Shown in pieces: positions 44,242-59,528 of a DNA stretch of 64,000 nucleotides. Numbering within the stretch: the first letter of the stretch is position 1; each line of letters starts with the position of its first letter. Under the pieces are notes generated by a model. The model was not told where the DNA came from and did no database searches. It saw only the letters and a program-made list of their open reading frames with translations. The DNA comes from Nitrospirae bacterium UBA2233 (GTDB lineage Bacteria; UBA2233), in NCBI GenBank assembly GCA_002347965.1, contig DDYN01000031.1, positions 20,177 through 84,176 of the forward strand, written 5' to 3'. The position numbers and the translations under genes are program-made.

Positions 44242-44903
44242 TCACCCTTCTCGTGTGGCGCATGGCGGATGTCCTTGCCCTGAACCATGAACACGATCAT
44301 CTCGGCGATGTTCGTCGTATGGTCTCCTACCCTTTCTAAGCTCTTGGCGATGGAAGAAAGGGCGAGAGCCTTCCGGATGTTCTTCGGGTCTTCCATCATG
44401 TAGGTCAGAAGCTCCCGAAACACTTGAATGTTGAGGTCATCGACAAACTGGTCGTCCGCAATCACGTCTTGGGCAAGCTCGACGTCCCCTTCGAAGAAGG
44501 CGTCCAAGCTCCTGCGGATCATCTTGCGTACCTGCTCGGCCATTCTGGGCAGGTCCACGTAGGGCTTTAAAGGGGGCTCATTGACGATTTCCAACACCCT
44601 TTCGCCGATGTTGACAAGAAGGTCCCCGATTCGCTCCAGATCTGTCGTAATCTTTATGGCCGTGAACACAAACCTGAGGTCTTTGGCCGCCGGCTGTTTT
44701 AGAACGATCATATTCCTAGAAATCCTGTCGATCTCGAGCTCAAGCTGGTCGATCTTGTCGTCAGATTCGATAACCATCTGGGCCTTCCGTTCGTCCTTTT
44801 CGACGAGCGCGCCGAGCGCCATTTCAAGGCGCTCTTCGATCATCGCCCCCATCTTGAGGATCAGCCTTCGTACCTCCAGGATGTCTTCGTCGATTCTTCG
44901 CAT
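44238..44903 (-). CDS. phoU: Phosphate signalling complex protein PhoU (start at internal MRRIDEDILEV; ORF-track start 45041)
   Basis: Two PhoU repeats (...DLERIGDLLVNIGE... and ...SLERVGDHTTNIAE...). The stop overlaps the nadE start as ATGA. Confidence 0.85.
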   Translation of the reverse strand: MRRIDEDILEVRRLILKMGAMIEERLEMALGALVEKDERKAQMVIESDDKIDQLELEIDRISRNMIVLKQPAAKDLRFVFTAIKITTDLERIGDLLVNIGERVLEIVNEPPLKPYVDLPRMAEQVRKMIRRSLDAFFEGDVELAQDVIADDQFVDDLNIQVFRELLTYMMEDPKNIRKALALSSIAKSLERVGDHTTNIAEMIVFMVQGKDIRHAPHEKGE

Positions 44904-44917
44904 TTTTTGCCTAAAAC

Positions 44918-45691
44918 CTAGCCGAATTTTCCGGTAATGTAGTCTTCCGTTTCCTTCTTGGTCGGGGTGACAAAGATCGCCTCGGTCTTGTCGTACTCGA
45001 TCAAGCGGCCCATGTAGAAGAATGCAGTGGAGTCGCTGCACCTTGCCGCCTGCTGCATGTTGTGCGTAACGATGACGATCGTGTACGAGCTCTTCAAGTC
45101 TTGAATCAACTCTTCGAGCTTTGCCGTTGCAATCGGGTCGAGCGCGGAGGCCGGCTCATCCAAAAGAAGAATCTTCGGGCCTACTGCCAAGGCCCTGGCT
45201 ATGCAAAGCCGCTGCTGCTGCCCCCCCGAAAGGCCGAGTGCGGGTTCTCTAAGCCTGTCTTTAACCTCGTCAAACAGCCCGGCCCTTCGCAGGCTATCCT
45301 CGACGATAGCATCCAAATCTCTTGCGCCGCGAACCCCGTGCAACTTCGGGCCAAACGCCACGTTGTCGTAGATGGACTTAGGGAAGGGGTTGGCCTTCTG
45401 GAACACCATCCCTACGTTTTTGCGAAGCTGGGCCACATCCACACCGTTGTTGTAGATATCGGCCCCTTCGATCGTCACCCGGCCTTCTACCCTGGCCCCT
45501 GGGACAAGCTCGTGCATACGGTTCAATACCTTGAGGAACGTCGATTTTCCGCAGCCTGACGGGCCAATCAGCGCGGTGATCTGGTTGCGGTAAATCTCGA
45601 TGCCGACACCAAACAGCGCCTGTTTCTTGCCGTAAAAAAAGTTAAGCCCCTCGACTAGAATCGAAACCCTGCCGTTCGCCATAATAAACAC
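44918..45691 (-). CDS. pstB: Phosphate ABC transporter ATP-binding protein PstB (no pstS/pstC/pstA adjacent)
   Basis: 257 aa; [23 protein letters not shown] PstB-type Walker A region, LSGGQQQR signature, and Walker [13 protein letters not shown]. Confidence 0.85.
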
Positions 45692-45704
45692 AACCCTCCA
45701 TGAG

Positions 45705-46481
45705 TCAGGCTGACGGAACGAATAAAGACCCTAGCGTGACTTGAGGAAGCGCGGCAAAGCTCCGTATGGACTCAAGAACGCCAGAAAAATACCCCTTGCA
45801 CTCGATGTCTCCAGGATGAAACTCTACACGTAGAACGGGCGAACGCTGCACTCGAACGCCAAGGCGGACGTACGGAAGGGCAAACACCCTCCGAAGCGGG
45901 GTTCGAACAGACCCGGAGATGACCTTCGAGCGAACACCAAGCCTTTGACGGAAGTCTACAAGCCACCCAAAGGTTGCAAGCGAACGAAACCCGGCCATTT
46001 GTACCGCAGCCCATTGTTTCCTGGAAAGCATCCAGGCGGGGGCAACAAACCCCCCCGGGGAAAGTCCGGCCTGCGATAGTATTTCAAGGCCCTCTTGAAG
46101 GCGCTCGAGGAGGTAGGGTTCAGCCATACCCAAACACTCCCCTTCCCCGTTGGTCGCCACTCTTTGCAGGACACGCCTATGGGCCCATTTTAAGCCTTTT
46201 GCCAGAGATGGATCCCAGCGGTGAAGAATACCGTGCATCGCCACGTCGTCTCCCTTGGCCGTTCTCTCTTTGACATACTTCACGAGCCTGGCTTCCTGCG
46301 AAAACTTCAGCCTGCCATGATACCACGGAACGGCAAGCAGCGTTACCCGCTCCACCCCGACCGTCTCCAGCGCACGCCGGATGGCCACAACCTGGCAAAA
46401 GCTTCCGGGGTATACGTCATGAATGGCGACGTAAAGAGACTTACTGGCCAAAAAGGCTTCTTTGATCCCGCAGGGCAACAT
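45705..46481 (-). CDS. DUF2334-like (polysaccharide-deacetylase-like) protein
   Basis: 258 aa; N-terminal [12 protein letters not shown] motif resembling the DUF2334 'IHDVSP' start. Overlaps the upstream GT4 gene by 41 nt. Confidence 0.55.
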
Positions 46482-47613
46482 ACAAAGCCTTCAGCGATTC
46501 GAACGTACGGTTCCAACTGAAACGATCAAGGACAAGCCTCCTTGCAAGCGAACCCAAGCGTTCGCGATCCATACCGAGAACTTTCGCAACGACATCGGCA
46601 AACGCGCCCGGAGAGGGGTCTGCAACGGGAAAGCTTGCTTGTCCCATGTCGGCACACAGAAACCCGAGGTTTTTTTGGAATACCACGGGCGTCCCGGAAG
46701 ACAGCGCTTCGAGCGCGGCCAAGCCGAACGTCTCGTAACGGCTTGGCATCACCAGCACGTCCACGCTCGCGTACAGCACGGAAAGCGTTTGTTTTGGCAG
46801 ATAGCCCAAGTACCGAACCGCTTGTGGGTATTCCCGCTGAAGCTCCAGGGCTTGGGGGCTCATAGGCCCGTCCCCCGCGATCAGGCAATTTGTAGCCATT
46901 CTTTCCCAAAGCATGCGCTGCATCTCGAGAAATAGCGGAAAACACTTGTCTTTACTAAGCCTGCCAACGTAAAGAACCGAGGGGAGCGAGGGGTCTAGCC
47001 CTAAGGCTTGGAGCAGTTGAGGGTTACGTTTTTCTGGGGCAAACAATGAGGTATCCACACCGAGGCTCACGAGCGTTGCGTTTTCGATTCCTAATCGCCT
47101 CAGCTTGTCTAATAGGGGTTGGCTAGCGGCAAGCGTGGCATCGAACCGGTTATAGAGGGCCTTTGTGTATTTAAGCGCGATCGTATACGGAAGGCTTGCA
47201 AGCCGCCATGTATTCCAATTCTGGGCAGATACCCGAAAATATGTATCCGAGAAATCGCTGTGGTAAAACCCGACGCATGGAACCTTCCGAGTCCTGGCGT
47301 AGTACAACGCGCTCCAGGGCAAAAGGTCCGGAGAGCCTACTTCAAGCACATCAGGCGCTTCTTTTCTCAAGATTCGAAGGCATGCGAGCGGGTTTAGAAT
47401 GAGCCGGTACTGCATGTTCCATGGAACGGGCATCCCGTGCACCCTGTAGATTTTCCTACCCGGCACCTCGAGGACCTCATTCCGTTTGTAAGGCACGATA
47501 AGCAGCTGCTTCCACGCGCCCGTCCTCACGCCATATTCGCCTTTGGCCTCAAGGTAGGTCTTGATCCCACCGCTCCTTTCCGAGTAGAACTGCGTAAGGT
47601 CGCAAACGTACAT
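46441..47613 (-). CDS. Glycosyltransferase family 4 (GT-B fold)
   Basis: 390 aa; C-terminal VGRLSKDKCFPLFLE... and the EX7E region YETFGLAALEALSSGTPVV. Confidence 0.8.
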   Translation of the reverse strand: MYVCDLTQFYSERSGGIKTYLEAKGEYGVRTGAWKQLLIVPYKRNEVLEVPGRKIYRVHGMPVPWNMQYRLILNPLACLRILRKEAPDVLEVGSPDLLPWSALYYARTRKVPCVGFYHSDFSDTYFRVSAQNWNTWRLASLPYTIALKYTKALYNRFDATLAASQPLLDKLRRLGIENATLVSLGVDTSLFAPEKRNPQLLQALGLDPSLPSVLYVGRLSKDKCFPLFLEMQRMLWERMATNCLIAGDGPMSPQALELQREYPQAVRYLGYLPKQTLSVLYASVDVLVMPSRYETFGLAALEALSSGTPVVFQKNLGFLCADMGQASFPVADPSPGAFADVVAKVLGMDRERLGSLARRLVLDRFSWNRTFESLKALYVALRDQRSLFGQ

Positions 47614-47685: not shown

Positions 47686-50220
47686 TCAAGAAAGGCGCTT
47701 GAGGGCAAACGTCTCTCTTGCGTGCATTTGCCAAAATGCCTCAAACGCCTTGTCGAACGAACGGTTTTCCATGTAGCGCCTGGCCTCGATCATCATCTCC
47801 TGTCTTCTTGCTGGGCTCTCGAGTAGCTCTTCGATGGCCTTGACGAGCGCGAAGCTGCTCCCAGCCTTGAACACAAGGCCCGTCCTGCCTGCTTCAAGGT
47901 TCTCGGAGGGTCCGCCCTCATCGGCCACGACGACGGGGATACCGGAGGCTTGGGCTTCGAGGACGACGTTCCCAAACGTATCCGTCGAGGAGGGAAAGAC
48001 AAAAATATCGGCCGAAGCGTAAACGCTCGAGAGCTCTTCCCCTTCAAGCGGCCCTGTGAATGTAATGCCAGAACCTTCGTATTTTGCCTTCAGTGCCCCT
48101 AGATAAGGGCCATCTCCCACGACAACCAACTCGGCGGTCTTATGGCGCTCTTTGATAAAAAGGTAGGCATCGATCAGCAGGTCCAACCCCTTCTCTTTCG
48201 ATACTCTTCCCACGTACAGGAGCTTTGTTCCTCCGTTGTTCGAAAAATTTTTCCAGATATCTTGGTTGCGAAAGCGCGGATGAAAACGCTGAATGTCTAT
48301 CCCCCTCGGAAAAACCTTGATCTTATCCGGCGTAAAACCGTTTTGCACCAGTTGGTTCATCGTCGCCCTGGAGGGGACGAACACGATGTCCATCTGTTCG
48401 TAGTACCAGCGGATATATCGCCAGCTCATCTCCTCCATCGAAAAATCCCCCGTTAGGATCCGGACATACTGAGGGATGTCTGTGTGATAGATGCCGTTGA
48501 TCGGGATGTCCAAGAGCCTTGCAACCAACAGCCCGGCTAGTCCCATTGGGCCGGGCGTCGAAGAGATCACGGAGTCAAACCCCTCACGCTCGCAAAACTC
48601 CACGATGTCCAAGAAGGGCGGGACGTATAGCTTAATGCTCTCGTATTCCGGGATCGGGAATGTCAAGAGCGGAAGAAACTTGACGAATACGTCCTCTAGG
48701 TAGGCCTCAATTTTGGCGTTCTGCGGGCATGCCACGACTTTTAAGTCTTTGGCGCTCCTCTTGGCGGATCGTGCCATCTCGAGGATGGTCCTGGCTACGC
48801 CGTTGACGTCGAAGATGGTGTCCGAAAACCATACCCTCCTGTCTAAGGGTTCCCCGCGTAGGTCCTCTAGAAGGCCGAGCCCGTCTAGGACTTCACGAAT
48901 ACGCTTTTTGTCTTTGTTTTGATGGTGGTAGGAAAAAAAGTAAGGCATAAGGAACATTTGAACCATGGTAAGGGCGGAGAGGTGGTTAAAGTTGTCTAGA
49001 ATCTTGAAGGTTTTTAAGTTTTTTAAGAACTTCGAGACAAAGTTCAAAGTCATGTGCTGCGAGATGCCGGAAGCAAGCTTTAGGTAGTTGTCGTTTATCG
49101 CCTCCCACTTTGCCTCGTCCGTAGCCCAAAGGCCCGAAAGCTCTTCGCTATGCGTCAAAAAAGAGGCCCTTCGTCCAAGAATACGAAGGAGGGCTTGATC
49201 GCCCTTTGGGATGTCCTCTCTGGGCTCGTAGCGTTCGATGAGCCGTTTGACCTTTTTCGCGATCCCCGACTGGAGTGTGCCCTTGGCGCTGGACTTGGAG
49301 TTTTCTCCGTTGCTCCCCGACCCTTGGGAAATCTTGTCAAGCAACGAAAATAGCAAATCTTCCGGCTTTTTGGCCTCCTTGAGCACGTCCTTTGCTAAAA
49401 ACTGGTAAGCAATCGCGTATAAACTATGGGCAAGCCCCAGAGGCGAGCCGTACCGTCCTGCACCCCTGCTCTGGCCAGATCGAAGGAACGAAAGAAACTC
49501 TTCAGGCGTGGCAGCTTTGGGCACAACCGTGTAGGCATGGCCGACAAACAGGCCCCCGTGGTCGTCCGAACCCCCTGCCATACCTCGCCTTGTCTCAAGG
49601 ATAGGCTCGAGGTCCATCGGGTTTCGGTCGGCAAGCTCGAGCAGGAAGTCTCTCGTAAGGCACCCTAAAAGCCTCTCGAAGGCCATGCTCGTGATCGCTT
49701 TCCTCGAACCATTCACCGTCTCGAACGCAGGAAACAAGAGCAGCAACCTCTCGATATGGTAGCGCTTCAGGCGGTCGTTAATGGCATAGAAGGGGTGAGT
49801 CACGTAATGGACGACGTTCTTTTCGCGCAGATAAGCGACGAGCTCGTAGATATTGTCCCGCACGCTCGCAACATCCTCGTGAATCTTTTCGTCTATCCCT
49901 AGCACCTGGACGTGAATCTTGCAATCGTCCTCGGGAAAATACGTCGTGACTTCTTCGCCGACAATCACGTCCGGGTGGTGGGCGATTTCGAGCGCTCCGT
50001 CGATCACGTTATGGTCGGTGATCGTCACGAAGTCCATTCCTAGCGCCTTCTCCGTGGTGTACACCCAAGAAGGCTCGAGGTAGCACTCCTGGCAGCCTAG
50101 CCGCCTCAAGAGCCACTGCGTGGGCTTTGTGGAGTACTTTGAGTGAACGTGAAGATCGGCCACGGATACCAACGCCCGGTCTATATTCGAAGAAAGCGCT
50201 TTCCCTTGTTCGGTGTCCAT
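47686..50220 (-). CDS. PHP-domain phosphoesterase fused to a GT4 glycosyltransferase (844 aa)
   Basis: N-terminal PHP motifs (DLHVHSKYS..., TITDHN, ...GGSDDHG); C-terminal GT4 domain (LLYVGRVSKEKGLDLLIDAY, SSTDTFGNVVLEAQASGIPVV). Confidence 0.75.
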   Translation of the reverse strand: MDTEQGKALSSNIDRALVSVADLHVHSKYSTKPTQWLLRRLGCQECYLEPSWVYTTEKALGMDFVTITDHNVIDGALEIAHHPDVIVGEEVTTYFPEDDCKIHVQVLGIDEKIHEDVASVRDNIYELVAYLREKNVVHYVTHPFYAINDRLKRYHIERLLLLFPAFETVNGSRKAITSMAFERLLGCLTRDFLLELADRNPMDLEPILETRRGMAGGSDDHGGLFVGHAYTVVPKAATPEEFLSFLRSGQSRGAGRYGSPLGLAHSLYAIAYQFLAKDVLKEAKKPEDLLFSLLDKISQGSGSNGENSKSSAKGTLQSGIAKKVKRLIERYEPREDIPKGDQALLRILGRRASFLTHSEELSGLWATDEAKWEAINDNYLKLASGISQHMTLNFVSKFLKNLKTFKILDNFNHLSALTMVQMFLMPYFFSYHHQNKDKKRIREVLDGLGLLEDLRGEPLDRRVWFSDTIFDVNGVARTILEMARSAKRSAKDLKVVACPQNAKIEAYLEDVFVKFLPLLTFPIPEYESIKLYVPPFLDIVEFCEREGFDSVISSTPGPMGLAGLLVARLLDIPINGIYHTDIPQYVRILTGDFSMEEMSWRYIRWYYEQMDIVFVPSRATMNQLVQNGFTPDKIKVFPRGIDIQRFHPRFRNQDIWKNFSNNGGTKLLYVGRVSKEKGLDLLIDAYLFIKERHKTAELVVVGDGPYLGALKAKYEGSGITFTGPLEGEELSSVYASADIFVFPSSTDTFGNVVLEAQASGIPVVVADEGGPSENLEAGRTGLVFKAGSSFALVKAIEELLESPARRQEMMIEARRYMENRSFDKAFEAFWQMHARETFALKRLS

Positions 50221-50241: not shown

Positions 50242-51714
50242 CTACCTGGTTTGGCCTTGAAACAGCTCCTTCAACCCCTCGGCCCAGGCCAGCATAGCCT
50301 GAAAAACATCCAAGGAAGCCGATTCGAAATACAGCCTAATTTTATTCTCGGTGCCAGACGGGCGGATCAAAACCCAAGAGTCATCTTCAAAGTACCTCTT
50401 GTAGCCGTCCAGCGAGGCATCGTGCAGCATCGAGGCCCCTTGGAAGGCGCTTGGGAGGCTTTCGATCGTCGAGCGAAAGGCTTTCTCGGATCGGGCTTCC
50501 GCAACGGGGACGTCCAACCTTCGGAATGTAAGCTCTCCGTACCGAGACCTAAGCCTTAAGAGTTGTTCATGGAAAGGCCCTTCTTTGATCCGCATTTCAA
50601 GCGCAAACATGTCGGCCAAAAGCCCGTCTTTATCCGGGATGTTCGGGGAGTACGCAAAACCTCCACTCTCTTCGACGCCCAGAAGTCCCGAAGATTGCAG
50701 CATCCGCGACGCAATGTTTTTGAATCCTACGGGGCTCTCGATCACCTCGACGCCAAAGGCTCTTGCGATACGGTCAACCATGCTTGAGGTGGAAACGCTC
50801 TTGACGATGGTGCCCCTTTCCCCCCGCACACGGAGCAGGTAATCTACAATCAGCGCAATCAAATCGGTGTTATCAACATAAACCCCTTGATCGTCCATCA
50901 CCCCAAACCGGTCCCCGTCGCCGTCCGTTGCCAGACCAAGGAGCGCCCCTCTTTGGCGAACCTCGCAAGCCAGGCCACGAAGCGCCCTGGAAGAAGGGGC
51001 GGTTTCTTCAAGACCTCCAAAGTATGGGTCTGGCTGAGCATGCAACGGAAACGCTACCGCTCCCGCTTTGTTCAGCAGGCGTCCAAAGCATCGGGCACTG
51101 GCGCCGTAAAGGGAGTCGTATACGACGACGGGATTGGCTTTGCAAATTGCCCGCACATCTAGCAGCGAACACAGGTGCTCTACATAATTCTCGCTCGCGG
51201 ACACGCTCCGGAGCATCCCCTCGTTTTCGATCGGCTTAGGCACGGCGGCGTTTCTATCGCACAAGGCCTCAATTTCGCCCGTTAAAGAGCCGTCCGCAAG
51301 CCCCGTACACGTTGTAAGCTTGACGCCATGATAGTAAAACGGATTATGACTTGCCGTAACGTTGACCCCCAAGTCGTATTTGCCCTGAATGGTCGCAAAC
51401 GTCAACGCCGGGGTTGTGTTCGGATGAGCCTCAAAATCGACTGAAACCCCGGAGCGCACGAGCGTACAAGCGATCAATTCTGCAAACAACCTGGAAAAAA
51501 AGCGCGTATCGTACCCCAGACGAACAACGCGTTGGGCCTCCGAATCGCCCCGACTCAGGTAGGCGGCAATTGCGTTTGCAAGGGTTACAACCTTGGAAAG
51601 CGTAACTTCTCGGGCAAGTATGCCCCGCCAACCGGAGGTACCAAACCGGATTGGAAAATCGCTTTTGTCGAACGTCAGGTTCTCAAAAAGCCCTAAAAAT
51701 TGGATGATATCCAT
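50242..51714 (-). CDS. Phosphoglucomutase/phosphomannomutase family (alpha-D-phosphohexomutase); start taken at internal MDIIQF...
   Basis: FGTSGWRG N-terminus, active-site loop TASHNP, and metal-binding DGDGDR. Confidence 0.85.
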   Translation of the reverse strand: MDIIQFLGLFENLTFDKSDFPIRFGTSGWRGILAREVTLSKVVTLANAIAAYLSRGDSEAQRVVRLGYDTRFFSRLFAELIACTLVRSGVSVDFEAHPNTTPALTFATIQGKYDLGVNVTASHNPFYYHGVKLTTCTGLADGSLTGEIEALCDRNAAVPKPIENEGMLRSVSASENYVEHLCSLLDVRAICKANPVVVYDSLYGASARCFGRLLNKAGAVAFPLHAQPDPYFGGLEETAPSSRALRGLACEVRQRGALLGLATDGDGDRFGVMDDQGVYVDNTDLIALIVDYLLRVRGERGTIVKSVSTSSMVDRIARAFGVEVIESPVGFKNIASRMLQSSGLLGVEESGGFAYSPNIPDKDGLLADMFALEMRIKEGPFHEQLLRLRSRYGELTFRRLDVPVAEARSEKAFRSTIESLPSAFQGASMLHDASLDGYKRYFEDDSWVLIRPSGTENKIRLYFESASLDVFQAMLAWAEGLKELFQGQTR

Positions 51715-52775
51715 GATGCAAGCTGCTCCGGTGCGAACTTTCCTTTTGCTTGAAGCACCCTCACCCGACCGTTGAAATTTTTGAACAAAGCCAGGTCGGA
51801 TGCTTTCGGACAAGAACGGTCTACCGTCCCGACGACGGGAACCTTCAAGGTTTTACCAGCGAACGAAGACAGTTCTTCTTGCTCCAGCTGATCTATTTTG
51901 AAATCCTCCTTTGCATTGCGAGACCACTCCAAAAACACAACCCCCTTCAGCTCTCCCCAGGGCTTTGCAATGCCATGGCCGTACACTTCTTGTACGGGAA
52001 CGTCACGCTTCATCTCGAGGTTCCAGAGGCTATCTTGCCCTAAAGATGCGAGCTCTTTTAACTCCTTGTGACTCAAGAGCGTCCGGAGGCGGGGGTCCGA
52101 AAAGATCGTCCCAGGGTTCACCCTAGGGAGCTTTGGAAACCCGACGGCCTGCATGGATGACCCCGTATATCCTACGAGCACCCTATCGTTGGCCACGTAA
52201 CGGAACCCTTCGCCAAGGAGCCTGAGGAGCGTTGTCGTCTTGCCGCTCCCCGAGCTCGAGGCGATGAGAACAACGCCACCCTTTCTCGTAGCCGCGGCGC
52301 CTGCGTGGAACAGCAAGAACCCCGCCTCAAGCCAGGCAAGGCTCAACACGTCGTTCACAACATTGACCGCGGAATTCCAATCCGAAACGCCGGGCTCTTC
52401 AAGCCATACCGCTCGCCGCTCGCCGTTTACGATGTAGCGCAAGCCAGAGCGAACTTTCTTTATCACCAGGAACGACCCTACTTTCAGCAAGGCTTCTTTC
52501 GCCGAAATCGGCGCAAAGGAGAGCCCGTCGAGCCCTTCTGGGAACCTTCCCGCAAGCACCGCCTTGAACTGGAGGCTTGGTCCAAAAGGCATCCTCCCCT
52601 CTTCTACGAGGTAGGGGGCGTAGCGGTCCAGCAAGGAGGTTAGAGGCTTCGGGGTGGGTGCGCTGACAATCAACTCCTGCCCCATGAGGACAAGCGGAAA
52701 ACGATGGGTAGCCCTACGTTCCTGTTGCGCCAGAAAGGCCGCCAGAGAAGACTCAAGCGAGTCGTCGAAGGACAT
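51693..52775 (-). CDS. HprK C-terminal-domain-like P-loop kinase with an unknown ~190-aa N-domain (start uncertain: 52775, 52685 or the ORF-track 52910)
   Basis: LIASSSGSGKTTTLLRLLGEGFRYVANDRVLV matches the HprK GxSGxGKSE...LVADD core. Overlaps the ATP-grasp stop and the PGM start. Confidence 0.65.
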   Translation of the reverse strand: MSFDDSLESSLAAFLAQQERRATHRFPLVLMGQELIVSAPTPKPLTSLLDRYAPYLVEEGRMPFGPSLQFKAVLAGRFPEGLDGLSFAPISAKEALLKVGSFLVIKKVRSGLRYIVNGERRAVWLEEPGVSDWNSAVNVVNDVLSLAWLEAGFLLFHAGAAATRKGGVVLIASSSGSGKTTTLLRLLGEGFRYVANDRVLVGYTGSSMQAVGFPKLPRVNPGTIFSDPRLRTLLSHKELKELASLGQDSLWNLEMKRDVPVQEVYGHGIAKPWGELKGVVFLEWSRNAKEDFKIDQLEQEELSSFAGKTLKVPVVGTVDRSCPKASDLALFKNFNGRVRVLQAKGKFAPEQLASWISSNF

Positions 52776-53643
52776 AGCCGGCAAACAGTCGGGCGGCATC
52801 CAGCCCGTATGCTTCATGCAGCCCACGAAACCCGCCAAAGGCGCTGACTTCGTAGACCAAAAAACCGTCCGGCCCCTCGACGAGGTCCACTCCGGCATAA
52901 CTAAGGCCAAACACGCGCTCGGCCTGTTTTGCTATCTCAAAGGCCGACCCAGGAAGGTCGTAAGGCTCGTAATACCCGCCTTCTGCGGTGGTCGTTTTCC
53001 AGCTCCCCTCCTTCGCCACACGAGCGTAGGCTTTAAGGAACTCTCCGCCAAGAAACATCACCCCGATGTCCCTCATCCCCTTGGCAGGAATGAACTCTTG
53101 CGCATAAAAGAAAGGGCCGTGTGTTTGCTTCCAGGCCTCTAGCGCACCCTTTTCGGCTTCCGGCCTGCCCAAACCAACCCGGATCATTCCACGAGCCTTT
53201 GAGGTAAAAAGCGGCTTGATGACGACCTCTTGCACCTCCTTGAGAAAATTCAACACATCCTCGGCCCGCTCCGTGATCAGGGTTCTTGGCATGGGAACGC
53301 CCGCAAGGGCAAGTTGGAGCGTCATTCTCATACGATCAATCGCCGCCTCGATCGCTTCGGGAGGAGAAAACACGGGCGTTCCCAGGGATTGTATCGCTTT
53401 GAGCTGCGCTACGCGCTCTGTCAGCGTAATATCGGAGGAATCGCCCAGCTTCTTCACTACCACGGCATCGACGGATAGTGCATCCTCCAACCCGAGGCGG
53501 ACTTTAAGCGAAGGCAACGATGCCGCGATCGCATCGTAAGGGACCAAAAAAGCCTCGGCCCCCTCCTTGAGAAAGGCTTCTTTAAGCCTTTCGGAAGACC
53601 AAGCGCCTGGGATACCGACAACCGCTATTCGCTTTGAGGCCAT
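52753..53643 (-). CDS. ATP-grasp enzyme (RimK-like, small form)
   Basis: 296 aa; ...VIKPLFTSKARGM..., ...YAQEFI..., ...YAGVDLVEGPDGFLVYEVSAFGGF... consistent with an ATP-grasp nucleotide-binding core. Overlaps upstream and downstream genes by 19 and ~20 nt. Confidence 0.75.
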   Translation of the reverse strand: MASKRIAVVGIPGAWSSERLKEAFLKEGAEAFLVPYDAIAASLPSLKVRLGLEDALSVDAVVVKKLGDSSDITLTERVAQLKAIQSLGTPVFSPPEAIEAAIDRMRMTLQLALAGVPMPRTLITERAEDVLNFLKEVQEVVIKPLFTSKARGMIRVGLGRPEAEKGALEAWKQTHGPFFYAQEFIPAKGMRDIGVMFLGGEFLKAYARVAKEGSWKTTTAEGGYYEPYDLPGSAFEIAKQAERVFGLSYAGVDLVEGPDGFLVYEVSAFGGFRGLHEAYGLDAARLFAGYVLRRLA

Positions 53644-55229
53644 GCGATAAACCGCTCCAAGTGTAGAATGCCTAGTAGATAGAGCTTTTTTGCCAACTCC
53701 AGTTGGTTGACAACCCTGCTCGAAGTAATGAACACGCGTCCCAACGCAACCATGAGCCTTCGTTTGACATGGCGATCAGAGTAAGCGCTACCAAACGCTT
53801 CGGCAAACCTTTCGAGCGATTCATTCACAAAGACTAAGTCTTCTTTAAGGTAGGTAGAAAGCAGGGGGTTTCGAATGTTTGAAACGATGATCGTCGCGAT
53901 ATCCTGAATATAGTCCCCGTAGCCGGAGCGGTGCACATCGATGAACTTTACGCCGTCTGTTCTGCTGTCGTAAAACACGTTGTTGGAGTTAAAGTCTCCG
54001 TGAATCCAAACTTCAAACGGCGGGAAAACCTCCTCTTCTAGCAGGGCGGCTCTTTGAAGGAGTTCGCTCAATGAAGGGGCGGACTTGCCGCAAAAGGAAA
54101 CGGGAAACTTCCTGATCTCTTCGAGCTCCGGATAAAAGGCATGCACCTCTTTTAGTCTCTTGATCAATTGAGGAACATAGCGGGTCGAAGGCTCTGCTTT
54201 TCGGATTGTCGATTGCCATAGCATTCGAAGAACTTCGATAATCCTCTCGAGCGAGCGACGTTTTAGATCAAAGTCCCCGAAAAAGAGGATCTCTTCGAAA
54301 GTCTTGCCCTGGAGGTATTCCGTGACGAGGATCTCTCGGTCCCCAAAGTACTGCTCGACCGTTAGTTTAGGAACGACCCCAGGATAAACCCTCTGCCAAT
54401 CATCGATCTTCTGCGCCTCTTCCGAAATTTTACTCCGCTCGCCTTCTTTAAGCACAAGACGCCGATGGCCATCCTGCTCCACGAGGAAAACGCGCGCGCC
54501 GCTTTTCCCCCCCCAAAGCGCTTGCATCCCGGCTACCGACTGATTTTCTAACGTTTCCCGGATATGCAGCAATTGATGGACTTTTATCTTTTCTCCTAGA
54601 ATCGTGTATACTCCGAGCTCTCCCAAATTGGCAAGGACATCCCCCATGTTCTCGGCATATTTGAGGGCAAAGAGATAAGTGATCGGAAAACTCTCTTCAG
54701 TTAAGCCTACGCGACTCGCCTCTTCGAAAAGAGCGGTCACTCCTCGCTGGTAAATTTCATCCAGCCTCACCTCGAAAGCGCAGACATCCTGTGCAAGCTC
54801 GATATTTTTTTGAAAGAGCGCGTCTAGAGCCATCTTGAGCCCGGCATCGATGATACCTACAAGCTCATCAACGGGCACCCACGGGGGCATCGGGGAGTTG
54901 TCCTTGAGGTGAAGGGTTTGCTTTGCGATGTTCACCCCATAATCGGCCAGCTTCTCTAAGTTGGTCGAAACCCTCACGTATCCCCTAAGAGAGAGAACCT
55001 CGGGCTTGGGGAGCCTACCTTGCTCAATGAGATCAAAACAGCGGTCTACAATAAGGACGTTAAGGGCGTCGATCTGGTCGTCCTTCTCGATAACACCCTG
55101 GGCAAGCGTTTTATCCCTCCCCTTAAAGGCCCCGAAGGCCTCCGCCACGAGAGCTCCGACCATTCGGCCCATCTTGCCCAGCTCGTGCTGGATGCTTTCT
55201 GCATTCAGCCTTGCGTCTGCAATATCCAT
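53625..55229 (-). CDS. PhoU-domain protein fused to an aminoglycoside-phosphotransferase-like (PF01636-type) kinase domain
   Basis: N-terminal ~215 aa with two PhoU-like repeats (...STNLEKLADYGVNIAK..., ...ENMGDVLANLGE...). C-terminal domain with Brenner motif WIHGDFNSNNVFY and downstream FIDVHRSGYGD. Confidence 0.7.
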   Translation of the reverse strand: MDIADARLNAESIQHELGKMGRMVGALVAEAFGAFKGRDKTLAQGVIEKDDQIDALNVLIVDRCFDLIEQGRLPKPEVLSLRGYVRVSTNLEKLADYGVNIAKQTLHLKDNSPMPPWVPVDELVGIIDAGLKMALDALFQKNIELAQDVCAFEVRLDEIYQRGVTALFEEASRVGLTEESFPITYLFALKYAENMGDVLANLGELGVYTILGEKIKVHQLLHIRETLENQSVAGMQALWGGKSGARVFLVEQDGHRRLVLKEGERSKISEEAQKIDDWQRVYPGVVPKLTVEQYFGDREILVTEYLQGKTFEEILFFGDFDLKRRSLERIIEVLRMLWQSTIRKAEPSTRYVPQLIKRLKEVHAFYPELEEIRKFPVSFCGKSAPSLSELLQRAALLEEEVFPPFEVWIHGDFNSNNVFYDSRTDGVKFIDVHRSGYGDYIQDIATIIVSNIRNPLLSTYLKEDLVFVNESLERFAEAFGSAYSDRHVKRRLMVALGRVFITSSRVVNQLELAKKLYLLGILHLERFIAWPQSE

Positions 55230-55232
55230 GCC

Positions 55233-55538
55233 TCAAGGCTGGGCCTCATTCTCGACGGACTCCCGTTCGACCGTAATCAGCAGCGGCTCGGCGGCTAATT
55301 CAGCCTTTTTCTCCCAGGAAAGCTTCAGCACAAGCTTTGCTTTTCCTCCCTTCTTTTTTGCCTCTACATCCAGTTCGATCGCCCCTTCGGGGGTCAGGTA
55401 CATCTCTTCCACGCCGCTTGTCAGGCGTACGGCCCCATTCCTTAGGGCGCTTGCGAGGCTCTCCAGGTATTCGGCAACGACATACGGTTCGGCGAAAGTG
55501 CTAAACTCAAACTCTTCCTTCTGCCCTCTTTTTGCCAT
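55233..55538 (-). CDS. Small protein, paralog 1 of 3 (possible amphi-Trp domain)
   Basis: 101 aa; ...VAEYLESLASALRNGAVRL...ELDVEAKKKGGKAKLVLKLSWEKK. The conserved LxLKLSW strand is shared with paralog 2. A 3-nt gap separates it from the PhoU-kinase gene. Confidence 0.5.
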   Translation of the reverse strand: MAKRGQKEEFEFSTFAEPYVVAEYLESLASALRNGAVRLTSGVEEMYLTPEGAIELDVEAKKKGGKAKLVLKLSWEKKAELAAEPLLITVERESVENEAQP

Positions 55539-55596
55539 CTGTGTCGCTCCTTTTATGACATCCTAAGACCATTTTAGCGTTTTTATTCGGCAAGTC

Positions 55597-56124
55597 TCAA
55601 TGCCCAAGAACCCTAAAGCCTCTTTCTGGGCCGCTTAAAGCCTTGTAGATTTTTCCTTCCTTTTGGAGCTTTCCCTCTCCGATCAGCCGGAGCACGACAG
55701 GAGCGAGCCTTCTCCAGTTCTCTCCAAGGCCCTCACCCAACTCTATCAACGAGGCACCGTCAGGTTTTACGCGCAACAAATAATCCAGCACCCTTTCTTC
55801 CTGCAAATTACTTCCGACGGCTGAGGCAGGCTGAAATGCGTCCTCGACAGTGGTGCCGGACTCTTGGGGTCGAACATCTAGACCGACCAACATAGTAGCA
55901 TCTTTCCAGCTCAAAACAACTTTTATTTTTTCTCTATACTTGCTGGAGCTTGTAGGCCTGCGACTCGCCTTGATCCGCAACAGCGGGAGAGACGATCGAG
56001 CAAAACTGAGGTGTTGCACCCCGGCTCGGATCGTAAAACGCCCCTCTCGCACGCCGTCGGCAAGGAAGCTAAGCAGGTCGGCCACCCTTTCCTTGTCCAG
56101 TTTCAGCAGCTCCTTTATCGTCAA
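55597..56124 (-). CDS. Small protein, paralog 2 of 3 (same N-terminal ~85-aa domain plus a ~90-aa C-terminal extension, possibly winged-helix-like)
   Basis: 175 aa; ...VADLLSFLADGVREGRFTI...KYREKIKVVLSWKD aligns with paralogs 1 and 3. The C-terminus is LDYLLRVKPDGASLIELGEGLGENWRRLAPVVLRLIGEGKL. Confidence 0.45.
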   Translation of the reverse strand: MTIKELLKLDKERVADLLSFLADGVREGRFTIRAGVQHLSFARSSLPLLRIKASRRPTSSSKYREKIKVVLSWKDATMLVGLDVRPQESGTTVEDAFQPASAVGSNLQEERVLDYLLRVKPDGASLIELGEGLGENWRRLAPVVLRLIGEGKLQKEGKIYKALSGPERGFRVLGH

Positions 56125-56347
56125 TGTCCAAGGCCCTCCCCTTCAACCCCTCGACCTTGAGAGTAATACGGAAGCGATCCCCATCCTCTTTGAGCTCAAA
56201 CTCGAGCGCTACTGGACCGACAAGGAGCACGGGCTTGGAGGGCCCAAGCCCGCCTTCTACGACGAGCCTCCCCTTTGCAAACCCATACCCTAGGGTTCGA
56301 AGAAATTCCGCAGCTTCATCTCGGTTTAGCGTACGCTTAAAACGCAT
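56069..56347 (-). CDS. Small protein, paralog 3 of 3 (Trp replaced by Gly at the conserved position)
   Basis: 92 aa; ...AAEFLRTLGYGFAKGRLVV...ALEFELKEDGDRFRITLKVEG aligns with the other two. Overlaps paralog 2 by 56 nt in another frame. Confidence 0.4.
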   Translation of the reverse strand: MRFKRTLNRDEAAEFLRTLGYGFAKGRLVVEGGLGPSKPVLLVGPVALEFELKEDGDRFRITLKVEGLKGRALDIDDKGAAETGQGKGGRPA

Positions 56348-56375: not shown

Positions 56376-57155
56376 CTAACAGGCCAAACGGCCGGGAACC
56401 TCCAAGGGGATTTCATCGATTCCCCTTGCACGCTTCACGACCCTCTTGATCTTATGGCTCATGTACACCCTGAGCGCAGGGAATTTGCCGCAGTAATAGT
56501 TGGTCTTCCGGTCGTGGATGGCGTCAAACAGGTGCTCAAGGCCAAACCGCTCGTCCGGAACGAGGGTCGCTCTAACGGCCAATTGAAGCCAATGGTGGGC
56601 ATCCGACCCGCCTGTCACGGCAAGTTCGAGCTCAGAGGCACGCTGAAGGAGCTTAACCTCCAGCCCGTAATCCTTCCCGTTCACCTCCACGGCATCAAGA
56701 CGCTTGAGCAGCCTTTCGGGAAACTTTTCGAGGTTTTTTTCCCCTCTAAACATGTGCGCACCGATCAGCAACAACTCAAGCCCATCGCGGGCACCGAGCA
56801 ATTCCTCGAACGGCGGCTTGTAGCCCGACGCTGGGGGCATCGAAAGCCTCGCTGCAAGGATACGAACGTGTTCAACCGGGCCTATGGCCAAGATGTCCCC
56901 CCCCTCGGCTACGCTAACCTCCGCCCCAGGAAGAAACGCAAAATTCTTTCCGACTCGGTACACTCCATCCTTGTAAGGAAAACGAGACGAAAGGTAGCGG
57001 TATACGCTAAAAAAATCCGGCGCGTGCAAGTGCTCTGTAACCGCTATGCCTTGCAGGCCGACTACAGAAGCGGTCCTGATGTAACGATCGACGCGCTTCG
57101 GCTCGAACGTGAACGTTTTGGATAGCATCATATGGGTGTGCAGGTCTATGACCAT
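56376..57155 (-). CDS. PHP-family metal-dependent phosphoesterase (histidinol-phosphatase-like)
   Basis: 259 aa; MVIDLHTHMM..., ...AVTEHLH..., ...GGSDAHH... PHP His/Asp motifs. Confidence 0.75.
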   Translation of the reverse strand: MVIDLHTHMMLSKTFTFEPKRVDRYIRTASVVGLQGIAVTEHLHAPDFFSVYRYLSSRFPYKDGVYRVGKNFAFLPGAEVSVAEGGDILAIGPVEHVRILAARLSMPPASGYKPPFEELLGARDGLELLLIGAHMFRGEKNLEKFPERLLKRLDAVEVNGKDYGLEVKLLQRASELELAVTGGSDAHHWLQLAVRATLVPDERFGLEHLFDAIHDRKTNYYCGKFPALRVYMSHKIKRVVKRARGIDEIPLEVPGRLAC

Positions 57156-57248: not shown

Positions 57249-59528
57249 TTACAAGGCATCGGCTTTCCACGAGGCGACAAAGCAGCTCGCAGGGTTTTTC
57301 TTGGCGACCTTTTTGAGTTTGGCCGCCTCCTCGCCCACCTCAAGATGCCCATTAAACACTCCAGGCTCAAGCAGAACGCCAGCCAAAGAGATGGCGATGA
57401 GGGGAAATTCCCGAACGTGCCCTTCTCTATCCTGGGACACGATGTATCCTCGGCTCCGGTCCTCTTCGGTGTAGAAGTTCACGATGGAGGCGTCGAAACG
57501 TTCGACAATTTCCATGCAGGCTTTTGCCGAGTTTTCTACAGGGAGGATAAAGATAAAGTCATCCCCTCCGACATGCCCCAAAAACCCGTCCTCGGCTTGA
57601 TCAATCGCGCTCTTGAGCGTAAAGGCCGTGTATTTGATTACGTCATCCCCATGGGTGAACCCATAACGGTCGTTGTAGGCCTTGAAGTTGTCGAGGTCCG
57701 CATAGACAACCACGTGCTCAAGACGCCCCTGAATCCTTCGGTTGATCTCGTCGTAAATCGGGATGTTTCCGGGTAGCCCCGTCAACGGGTTTGCGTACGT
57801 CGCGAACAAGATCTGGAGCTCGGAGGTCTTTCGGAATAGCTCGTGGACCGTGCCTAGCCCCGAATACTTCCCGGACGTCGTCACAAGAAACGGGTCGTAC
57901 ACACGAGAAGGCGGGCGTTCCAGGCAGGCCCTGGAAACACGCTCTAGAGAATCCGTTGCTTCGACGATAACGGGGTTGGGGTCCATTAGCCGCTCGATCG
58001 GCTTTTCGCAGTACAAGGCATACCCGAACTCACTCGAGAGCTTAAGGAACAAGGGTTCACGGACAACGAGGCCGACGGGACTTCCCGTTGGGTTGACGAC
58101 AGGCAGCGCCACCAGGTCTTCTTTCTCCTTGAACCTCTGAACCACCACCCTTACCTTTGTGTTTGGGAAAATTGGTTCGACAAAATATTTCAGTTCCTCG
58201 ATGACGCTTCCCGAGACGGGCCTTTCGCCGACTTCTACCTTGGAGAACAATTTATGGATATTAGTAAACGACTCCGAAAAACCAGCCACCGATTCGTTCG
58301 GCCTTCCCAAGAAATAGCCTTGCCCTAGGTCTACTCCAAGCTTGTAGACCTCTTTGAGCTCGTCAAAGGTCTCGATCCCCTCGGCAACAACGAGGATCCC
58401 TAAGGCGTGGGCCAAATCCACAAGCGAACGCACGAGGCGGAGCTTGATGTACGACTTGCCGAGGTCTTGAATAACTCCCCTGTCTATCTTGATGATATCC
58501 GGCGTTTGATGGACAAGGATGGGGATGAGGCTGATGCCGGCACCCACGTCGTCGATTGCCACGACAAACCCCTGACGCTTGTAATGGGCAATGGCCTCGA
58601 GCACGCCCTGTAGGCTAGGGAGCCTGACGTTTTCAGTAACCTCCACCACGAGCTGGTCGTAGGAAAGCCCATACCTCCGGGCAAGCGCTTTGGTAAGCCC
58701 AATTTCTCGGGAAGGCGCCAAGACCACTTCCGGATCAATGTTGACGGCAAGCCTTTTTTGGATTTTTTGCCTTGAGGCGTTGAAGAAGGCGCGTTCCCGC
58801 ATGGCTCCCTCGAGCAACGTCAGCTGGCTAGTCTCTTTGGCCGCTTCAATAAGCCGAATGATGCTTAAAAACGGCACCGAGGTGGTAGGGAAGGAGAGGC
58901 ATTCGTAGCCAAACAGCTCGGCCGTCTTGAGCGAATAGATCGGCTGGAAACGCGTAGAAATCAGCCCCCTTTGAACAATCTCCTGAATGCAGGCCTCAAT
59001 CTTGTAAGAGGTGTCGTAGCCCTTGTCAGCCCCCTTCCCTCCGTCGTTTAGCGTAGTGTTGAGGTCTTGGAAAATACGAAGAACCTGATAGTCCAAGGAA
59101 AGCTTGCAGTTCAACGCCGCTTCCAGCACGCCAACACGAATGTCCCCCCGCAAAGAGGCGGCATCTTCTATCCCAAAGGCCTGAAGGGAGGCGGGGTTCA
59201 GGAAAAACTCCCGAATTTTTGGTACCACGACTATTTTCTCGCTATGCTCAAGCGGCGCGTCGGGGATTAGGAGGAGCTCCCATGGGCCTATCACGCAGCC
59301 GGTCCCATCGATGCCCGCATATTCGGCCAGCGATTCCGCAAGGGTTCGCATCTGGTAAAGATCGGACTTAGGGGATGCGCTTGCCTGGCCATTGCCAAGA
59401 ATCTCCCGGAAGTTCACAGAAAACACACAAAACTTCTGACTTTCGGAAAGCAGGCGCTTCATGAACACGATCAGGGATTCTAGGTCGGGCAAGAGGCTAA
59501 GGCGTCTCGATTTTTCTCGTATAAACAC
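57249..59528 (-). CDS. c-di-GMP turnover protein: unknown N-domain, EAL, tandem CBS, degenerate GGDEF (GGDDF)
   Basis: EAL motifs (EVTENV, AIDDVGAG, IIKIDRGVI, VVAEGIETFDELKEV); a CBS-like region; C-terminal GGDEF fold with HVGGDDFIFILP. Confidence 0.8.
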   Translation of the reverse strand: MFIREKSRRLSLLPDLESLIVFMKRLLSESQKFCVFSVNFREILGNGQASASPKSDLYQMRTLAESLAEYAGIDGTGCVIGPWELLLIPDAPLEHSEKIVVVPKIREFFLNPASLQAFGIEDAASLRGDIRVGVLEAALNCKLSLDYQVLRIFQDLNTTLNDGGKGADKGYDTSYKIEACIQEIVQRGLISTRFQPIYSLKTAELFGYECLSFPTTSVPFLSIIRLIEAAKETSQLTLLEGAMRERAFFNASRQKIQKRLAVNIDPEVVLAPSREIGLTKALARRYGLSYDQLVVEVTENVRLPSLQGVLEAIAHYKRQGFVVAIDDVGAGISLIPILVHQTPDIIKIDRGVIQDLGKSYIKLRLVRSLVDLAHALGILVVAEGIETFDELKEVYKLGVDLGQGYFLGRPNESVAGFSESFTNIHKLFSKVEVGERPVSGSVIEELKYFVEPIFPNTKVRVVVQRFKEKEDLVALPVVNPTGSPVGLVVREPLFLKLSSEFGYALYCEKPIERLMDPNPVIVEATDSLERVSRACLERPPSRVYDPFLVTTSGKYSGLGTVHELFRKTSELQILFATYANPLTGLPGNIPIYDEINRRIQGRLEHVVVYADLDNFKAYNDRYGFTHGDDVIKYTAFTLKSAIDQAEDGFLGHVGGDDFIFILPVENSAKACMEIVERFDASIVNFYTEEDRSRGYIVSQDREGHVREFPLIAISLAGVLLEPGVFNGHLEVGEEAAKLKKVAKKNPASCFVASWKADAL

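Follow-up and report, generated by a model that had tools for sequence, protein, structure and literature searches.

Three small genes directly upstream of a kinase gene

The 64,000-nucleotide stretch of contig DDYN01000031.1 from Nitrospirae bacterium UBA2233, referred to here as the window, carries three small genes (A, B and C) at positions 55,233 to 56,347. Their products are almost certainly anciently diverged members of the amphi-Trp family (TIGR04354 / PF20068), and this family provides the non-enzymatic "A" part of the GAK cassette. The acronym combines Grasp, Amphipathic (amphi-Trp) and Kinase, and the NCBIfam names returned are consistent with this. The cassette was defined in silico, and no function is known for it. 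Both the family and the cassette had already been named, which the original prediction for this locus missed; the observation is a rediscovery of a catalogued family, and what is new is a further member, located in the less common flavour of the cassette. The three open reading frames (ORFs) and a promoter-like site between two of them are as follows.

56069-56347, minus strand: ORF A, 92 amino acids (aa); divergent amphi-Trp protein with Gly (LKVEG) where the family has Trp, followed by a 25-aa tail
55597-56124, minus strand: ORF B, 175 aa, TTG start; amphi-Trp domain at about residues 8-74 (KVVLSW), a linker and a C-terminal domain at about residues 105-175
55571-55600, minus strand: promoter-like site (TTGAGA-18-TAAAAT) in the spacer between B and C, upstream of C; 10/12 in a consensus scan
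55233-55538, minus strand: ORF C, 101 aa; canonical amphi-Trp protein with an acidic disordered tail; its stop lies 3 nucleotides (nt) before the start of a PhoU-APH kinase gene

The original prediction described these ORFs correctly as a tandem; all three lie on the minus strand. The sequence blocks that it quoted agree with the translations, as does its account of the Trp column, which reads VVLSW in B, LKLSW in C and has Gly in A. The 56-nt overlap of two copies in different frames, also noted there, is that of A and B (56069-56124), provided that B starts at the TTG at 56124. Two relatives of the locus, L001 (75% DNA identity to the window) and L005 (90%), have an ATG two codons past this TTG and hence a 50-nt overlap with A. 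The same codon reads ATA in the window, so the TTG is taken as the start of B. Both frames of the overlap are open in the two relatives as well. Compared with L001, substitutions at codon positions 1/2/3 number 11/9/35 in A, 38/33/74 in B and 15/8/40 in C, with zero frame-shifting indels in any of the three, and all three genes are under coding constraint. Orthologs of A (P0009, P0012 and P0013) keep the Gly at the Trp column, and orthologs of B are full length with 65-99% identity. Both hexamers of the promoter-like site are kept in the alignment with L001 and L005; because such sites are no more frequent in the region than expected by chance, the site is a mere lead. Rfam gave zero matches in the 50-60 kb part of the window.

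The extra C-terminal domain of B had been described as winged-helix-like. The domain itself is real, spans about 70-75 aa and is conserved in the orthologs, while the winged helix could not be confirmed: Pfam gave zero matches to the domain and a fold search gave no significant match. The AlphaFold model of B is poor, with a predicted local distance difference test score (pLDDT) of 45; its predicted helices and hairpins would be compatible with a winged helix, which falls short of proof.

Family membership, fold and conservation

Curated cut-offs are 31 bits for TIGR04354 and 27 bits for PF20068. C lies above both, with 59.1 bits (E=3.9e-16) and 32.3 bits, respectively, and A lies above the first (40.3 bits, E=2.9e-10) with zero Pfam matches. 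B falls just below the first cut-off (29.3 bits, E=7.8e-7) and below the second (23.3 bits), both matches having E<1e-4; although it is under the curated cut-offs, its sequence appears clearly related, and B would count as an amphi-Trp member by any reasonable reading. A separate amphi-Trp profile was iterated on ORFs from 80 GAK loci, which are the best 80 of at least 552 confirmed matches (600 stretches matched) in a scan with an ATP-grasp alignment, one genome being kept per species. This profile matches A with E=4e-15, B with E=7e-14 and C with E=7e-25. The shared motif, for which chance similarity had been raised as a concern, thus has homologs, and all three proteins match the amphi-Trp profile.

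The wider family comprises 1,457 clusters at 50% identity (E<=1e-3) when 1.84 billion representatives are scanned in full with HMMER. Such a scan was needed because word-indexed searches with C or with an alignment of A, B and C returned only close relatives from this lineage. Members are mostly single-domain proteins of 85-130 aa; tandem arrangements of two or three domains occur in others. Among A, B and C, pairwise identity is about 20%; BLASTP finds no significant similarity between A and C or between A and B, and a marginal one between B and C (E=0.002 over 26 residues). Since similarity is clear at the profile level and barely visible in pairs, the three are ancient paralogs. The paralogy in the originally predicted tandem triplication is upheld by the profile matches, whereas a triplication in the recent sense is not. 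When scored against separate profiles of the "upstream" and "downstream" amphi-Trp types, C reaches 75 bits on each, and A and B are weak on both, so that A and B are divergent copies specific to this lineage.

An AlphaFold model of C, built with a 107-sequence alignment, has a mean pLDDT of 85.8 and exceeds 94 over residues 11-70. It contains a helix at residues 18-34 and four antiparallel strands at residues 37-41, 44-48, 55-63 and 66-74, followed by a low-confidence tail. The amphi-Trp domain is thus confidently predicted to be a single helix lying against a sheet of four antiparallel strands, the last of which is amphipathic and ends in the Trp. A search with the model found no significant fold analog in the PDB, and neither C nor the 107-sequence family profile gave a meaningful match in PDB sequence searches. 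Residues of the last strand of C alternate, with A67, L69, L71, L73 and W75 on one face and Lys on the other. The hydrophobic face probably packs against the helix; if so, the Trp would serve in the core or as a cap, and not as an obvious functional group.

Over 301 family sequences, conservation is seen at Y16, L17, L20, G23, G27, L40, P42, A52, K55, K58, K60, S66 and W67. The Trp is present in 90% of the sequences, A being an exception (RITLKVEG, with Gly at that column), and a Ser precedes it in 53%, no other Ser being conserved. None of the conserved positions is a His, Asp, Cys, Thr or Glu. What is conserved amounts to a hydrophobic core, Gly and Pro, the Trp and several Lys, a pattern that points to non-catalytic proteins.

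The region past the Trp is variable. C has an acidic tail of 26 aa with pLDDT 52-69, and A has a Gly/Lys/Asp tail of 25 aa. Across the family, the median tail is 24 aa long, and E, A, P, K and S are abundant; tails are polyacidic in some paralogs and rich in Lys, Ala and Pro in others. About 12 residues past the Trp there is a recurrent short hydrophobic "LxI" element. The motif h-[KR]-I-[ST] is found in 26 of 49 downstream-type copies and in 3 of 56 upstream-type copies; being nearly confined to the former, it is not a family-wide site. Fusions of the amphi-Trp domain include those to the XXXCH domain, to a metallophosphoesterase within a GAK locus, to itself in tandem and to the C-terminal domain of B.

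Two of the fusion proteins can be described individually. P0210 (L086:8001-9791, 596 aa) combines a calcineurin-like metallophosphoesterase (DVHAD, GDCLDKGP, GNHD and VHGH) with a C-terminal amphi-Trp domain. It is encoded in a full GAK locus, in the usual slot upstream of the PhoU-APH kinase, with a His_Phos_1 phosphatase before it. P0135 (L085:3189-4214, 341 aa) has three tandem amphi-Trp domains and is encoded divergently beside polyphosphate kinase PPK1 and a Ppx/GppA phosphatase on a 4.4-kb contig.

The GAK cassette in the window and across phyla

The genes that surround A, B and C in the window include the enzymes of the cassette and a signalling protein upstream of it.

57249-59528, minus strand: EAL-CBS-GGDEF protein, directly upstream of the cassette; 116-bit match to the RimA model
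56376-57155, minus strand: PHP-family phosphoesterase, 259 aa, directly upstream of A; PF13263 (PHP_C); PDB match to PsfC (7rty), E=2e-10
53625-55229, minus strand: fusion of PhoU with an APH/choline-kinase-like kinase (PhoU-APH kinase), 534 aa; PF01895 92.5 bits, PF01636 53.3 bits; catalytic motif HGDFNSNN
52753-53643, minus strand: GAK-system ATP-grasp of the RimK/LysX/MptN clade, 296 aa; best match TIGR04356, 277.3 bits (cut-off 300, equivalog model)
51693-52910, minus strand: HprK-related kinase B (HprK-B) with P-loop SGSGKTT; best match TIGR04355, 135.2 bits (cut-off 200)

The start of HprK-B probably lies downstream of that of the longest ORF; gene callers give 360-368 aa. A literature search on PsfC found only unrelated acronyms. 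Among the matches listed, the nearest genome is the Nitrospirae (Nitrospirota) metagenome-assembled genome WOFB21, with an ATP-grasp 93% identical to that of the window. PADLOC defence models gave no match for the cassette, and neither did a tblastn search of plasmids.

A search of the PDB returned LysX, RimK and ArgX as the closest solved relatives of the ATP-grasp in the window. All three of these enzymes ligate amino acids onto small protein partners. The occurrence of several small tandem genes beside an ATP-grasp is also what would be expected of graspetide (microviridin-type) precursors or other ribosomally synthesized and post-translationally modified peptides (RiPPs), and a graspetide-like logic had been proposed for A, B and C. 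The ATP-grasp would then make lactone or lactam cross-links between their side chains. HprK-like relatives (ScmC and HprK-related kinase A) occur in peptide-maturation cassettes, as NCBIfam names matched at weak scores indicate, which would fit. The graspetide maturase models, however, score poorly on this ATP-grasp (TIGR04185 34.8 against a cut-off of 425 bits, TIGR04187 33.1 against 350 and TIGR04184 22.9 against 475), and the GAK and RimK models reach 135-277 bits on the same protein. The predicted structure is a folded domain instead of a leader and core peptide, the family has no conserved Thr/Ser/Lys-Asp/Glu core motif, and no protease or exporter was found in the cassette. A precursor role is therefore very improbable. 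The graspetide-like logic is not supported, on three grounds: the ATP-grasp belongs to the RimK/LysX/MptN alpha-L-glutamate-ligase clade, the small proteins have folded domains of about 70 aa, and the family has no conserved Ser/Thr/Asp/Glu acceptor. The amphi-Trp proteins appear to be neither enzymes nor RiPP precursors. The more general proposal of a regulatory partner family or a substrate remains a plausible class in view of the linkage to an ATP-grasp and kinases, though not in the form of a graspetide-type substrate.

This linkage was checked in the 80 GAK loci, which span Desulfobacterota, Nitrospirota, Nitrospinota, Planctomycetota, Chloroflexota, Zixibacteria, Rokubacteria, Ignavibacteria, Gemmatimonadota, SAR324 and Alphaproteobacteria. 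The ATP-grasp scan also shows cultured carriers, among them Maridesulfovibrio sp. FT414, Desulfoluna butyratoxydans MSL71 and Aestuariispira insulae. Amphi-Trp ORFs are found on the same strand in 72 of the 80 loci, and the remaining eight include several contigs of 2-4 kb. Among the 52 complete loci, each with at least 5 kb on both sides, 51 have amphi-Trp genes: one copy in 7 loci, two in 37, three in 6 and four in 1. The reverse search started from the amphi-Trp side with a metagenome scan that used a narrower subfamily alignment, and eight of the nine loci with enough upstream flank hold the set of PhoU-APH kinase, ATP-grasp and HprK-B. The co-occurrence of small genes with an ATP-grasp and kinases, for which such a check had been proposed, thus extends well past the window.

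The usual gene order begins with an amphi-Trp protein fused to an XXXCH domain (TIGR04358), a 388-aa protein, an amphi-Trp protein of about 92 aa and the PhoU-APH kinase. It continues with the ATP-grasp, HprK-B, a CofD-like protein (TIGR04357) and a second amphi-Trp protein with a long charged tail. Homologs of the PhoU-APH kinase, a feature outside the curated GAK names, are found on the same strand in 75/80 loci, and homologs of HprK-B are equally frequent (75/80). The CofD-like protein is present in 50/80 loci, 29/52 complete loci and 0/7 loci with a PHP protein. The stop of the upstream amphi-Trp gene lies at a median gap of -5 nt from the kinase start across 64 loci from different phyla, compared with 3 nt in the window. 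So tight a junction suggests translational coupling, and C is probably coupled in this way to the PhoU-APH kinase gene directly downstream.

The slot upstream of the amphi-Trp gene is occupied by the 388-aa family in 41/52 complete loci, by a protein of the 259-aa PHP type in 7/52 and by both in 0/52. The cassette therefore occurs in two flavours, and the window, which is without the CofD-like protein, represents the rarer one. The seven PHP-flavour loci come from Nitrospirota, Chloroflexota and Rokubacteria; their amphi-Trp copies are upstream only, and two or three stand in tandem in 3/7 loci. Neither a TIGR04357 homolog nor a member of the 388-aa family is present in the 64 kb of the window. 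The XXXCH C-terminal domain is also absent from it, as only the amphi-Trp part of the TIGR04358 profile matches A and C.

The 388-aa family (representative L061:813-1979, about 3.2 kb upstream of the ATP-grasp) has 64% mean column identity across phyla and the invariant motifs HWHPE, PTQHN, PHPEQFWPILLA, EVWNPQS and GDDxH. It has no Pfam, NCBIfam or PDB sequence match, and its profile found nothing in the PDB. It looks like an unrecognised metal-dependent enzyme. Homology between this family and the 259-aa PHP protein was considered and rejected (hhalign probability <1%). The phosphoesterase slot beside the amphi-Trp gene is filled by non-homologous proteins: the 388-aa family, PHP, a metallophosphoesterase or His_Phos_1.

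Further downstream, the window encodes a GlmM/PGM-like mutase, a PHP and GT4 fusion, a GT4 glycosyltransferase, a DUF2334 deacetylase-like protein, PstB, PhoU, NadE and LeuS. The GT4 and DUF2334 proteins at 44238-47613 (minus strand) resemble the synthase and deacetylase of GlcNAc-phosphatidylglycerol (NF053787 219 bits and NF053788 123 bits, both below cut-off). PstB and PhoU follow this pair, and pstS, pstC and pstA genes are not found directly before them. The GT4 glycosyltransferase at 47686-50220 belongs to a type that is about 800-850 aa long and has a large extension at its N-terminus; in the copy of the window, this extension shows only a faint PHP_C match. Proteins of this type adjoin GAK cassettes in several unrelated loci (7/80, and L087 at 339-2750), and GlmM/PGM-like mutases do so in 5/80. 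There are hints that an optional sugar-phosphate module of GT4 and GlmM/PGM proteins may stand in for the CofD/YvcK-like protein.

Taken together, the GT4/DUF2334 pair, PstB, PhoU and the PhoU-kinase fusion indicate a phosphate or hexosamine-lipid theme in the region. One rival explanation is a scaffold, in which amphi-Trp proteins would self-assemble through edge strands or the conserved post-Trp "LxI" strand and use their oppositely charged disordered tails to form an abundant scaffold or condensate or to bind a polyanion such as polyphosphate, with the PhoU-kinase and phosphoesterases acting on the scaffold. The phosphate theme of the PhoU domains of the cassette and the PstB-PhoU pair downstream fits this explanation, as do the great abundance of an amphi-Trp protein in one proteome (see below), the polyacidic and Lys/Ala/Pro-rich tails of different paralogs, and the existence of proteins with two or three tandem domains, one of them a three-domain member beside PPK1 and PPX. 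On the other side, PPK1 and PPX are found neither in the 80 GAK loci nor in the window, so that the polyphosphate link comes down to one 4.4-kb contig, and the predicted monomer is a closed two-layer fold. A scaffold is rated as rather improbable.

Proposed role and comparison with known systems

The best explanation of these observations joins the identity of the proteins with a role as partners or acceptors of the cassette enzymes; taken as a whole, it is about evenly poised between right and wrong. The mechanism proposed within it is more tentative and leans towards being wrong: amphi-Trp proteins may be docking or acceptor partners of the cassette kinases, the ATP-grasp ligase and the phosphoesterase. 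The handle that binds the PhoU-APH kinase and/or other enzymes would be the folded, conserved domain, whose beta3-beta4 hairpin is rich in Lys. The part past the Trp would be a payload that is presented, modified or targeted, which could be an acidic or basic disordered tail, an XXXCH domain, a phosphatase or the possibly DNA-binding domain of B. A cycle of phosphorylation and dephosphorylation is suggested by the presence of two kinases together with a phosphoesterase slot that is filled by unrelated folds.

Three further observations point to a docking or acceptor role. Small protein partners are what LysX, ArgX and RimK, the ATP-grasp's nearest solved relatives, act on; the fusions place different payloads behind the same handle, and an amphi-Trp protein is highly abundant in one proteome. 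In the one proteome study that mentions the family, this protein ranks in the top 20 by abundance in Dissulfuribacter thermophilus (PMC13490349). Such a rank implies that the amphi-Trp gene is translated at a high level, far above that of a typical enzyme or regulator.

Several observations weigh against such a role. No conserved acceptor or C-terminal residue was found in the tails, the last residue being E in 16% of the sequences, A in 15% and S in 14%; with no conserved acceptor in the domain, the tail or the C-terminus, a defined modification site is not visible. The domain also occurs apart from the cassette enzymes. In the loci L104 to L106, a 178-aa amphi-Trp protein (L104:10001-10537) is encoded directly downstream of a CDF cation-efflux transporter; GAK enzymes are absent from the 10 kb upstream and about 1.4 kb of contig downstream in L104 and from about 4.5 kb downstream in L105. 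These orphans indicate that the amphi-Trp domain is not strictly confined to the GAK cassette, and the amphi-Trp gene beside PPK1 and PPX in L085 is likewise without GAK enzymes nearby. The enzymes could act on a small molecule instead, given that the ATP-grasp also has MptN and CofF among its relatives and that CofD-like proteins move phospho-groups onto small molecules. In the literature that could be searched, no experimental paper deals with the GAK system, and amphi-Trp is mentioned only incidentally.

The handle-and-payload proposal can be extended into a more specific, and unlikely, model. The amphi-Trp proteins would form a novel class of handles whose disordered tails or fused domains are covalently phosphorylated and/or aminoacylated (glutamylated) by the GAK kinases and the ATP-grasp and reset by the phosphoesterase. 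GAK would be a widespread, hitherto unrecognised bacterial system for protein tagging or carriage, possibly linked to phosphate status through PhoU, and in this Nitrospirota variant B would couple it to a DNA-binding output.

Since the family and the cassette are already catalogued in TIGRFAMs/NCBIfam and Pfam, the locus does not represent a discovery of a new kind. The GAK cassette is nonetheless found in hundreds of species from at least 10 phyla, and its small protein can rank among the most abundant proteins of a cell. What the present analysis adds is the placement of the PhoU-APH kinase in the conserved core, abutting the amphi-Trp gene, the phosphoesterase slot with its non-homologous enzymes, the two cassette flavours and a predicted amphi-Trp fold for which the PDB returned no solved analog. 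If amphi-Trp proteins prove to be acceptors of a new protein modification, this would be of broad interest.

The window resembles the curated amphi-Trp/GAK system (TIGR04354-TIGR04358) in its profile matches, in the multiple copies per locus and in having ATP-grasp and HprK-B neighbours. The family's helix and its amphipathic strand with a terminal Trp are present in B and C, and A and C share its charged, variable post-Trp region. The window differs in that A has Gly in place of the Trp and that the C-terminal domain of B is not seen in the other 80 loci. In place of the CofD-like and XXXCH proteins, which it lacks, there are a PHP protein, GT4 proteins and a PGM/GlmM-like mutase.

LysW-type carrier proteins have a zinc-ribbon globular domain and a conserved C-terminal end of the EDWGE type. 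Like LysW, which is loaded by LysX and ArgX, the closest solved relatives of the ATP-grasp, amphi-Trp proteins are small, acidic-tailed partners encoded within an enzyme operon beside an ATP-grasp of the RimK family. By analogy, the ATP-grasp would ligate a small-molecule amine to a tail carboxylate, and the kinases, the CofD-like protein and the phosphoesterase would process the tethered intermediate before its release. Amphi-Trp proteins, however, have another fold with no zinc ribbon or Cys pairs, and they lack a conserved C-terminal Glu or EDWGE-like motif, the last residue varying freely. The LysX model TIGR02144 gives 104 bits against a cut-off of 276, and the reductase, aminotransferase and hydrolase of LysW pathways are missing, as are downstream enzymes of the LysZ/Y/J/K type. 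A carrier of this type is thus quite improbable.

Poly-glutamylation of S6 by RimK offers a second comparison. The ATP-grasp is of the same clade (TIGR00768 134.8 bits; PDB 4iwx, 5zct and 7qyr), an acidic-tailed protein acceptor is plausible, and an EAL protein similar to RimA is encoded upstream in the window. RimA is an EAL regulator of RimK. Homologs of the EAL-CBS-GGDEF protein are found in only 5/80 GAK loci, so its link to the ATP-grasp is probably lineage-specific or coincidental. Amphi-Trp proteins have no conserved C-terminal Glu-Glu, and the two kinases and the phosphoesterase of the GAK cassette have no counterpart in the RimK system.

HPr and HPr kinase/phosphorylase are similar in that a protein of about 90 aa is encoded beside a P-loop kinase related to the C-terminal domain of HprK. 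They are dissimilar in that amphi-Trp proteins have no HPr match in Pfam or NCBIfam, no fold match and no conserved Ser equivalent to Ser46.

A last comparison bears on a purely regulatory role, which seems unlikely. Here the amphi-Trp domain would bind and control the PhoU-APH kinase and would itself remain unmodified, the paralogs would be differently tuned subunits, and B would provide a link to DNA. The precedent is the KA1/AMPK-alpha type of C-terminal regulatory domain, with which the predicted amphi-Trp domain shares a helix on a small antiparallel sheet, a basic patch and a kinase partner with a protein-kinase-like fold.

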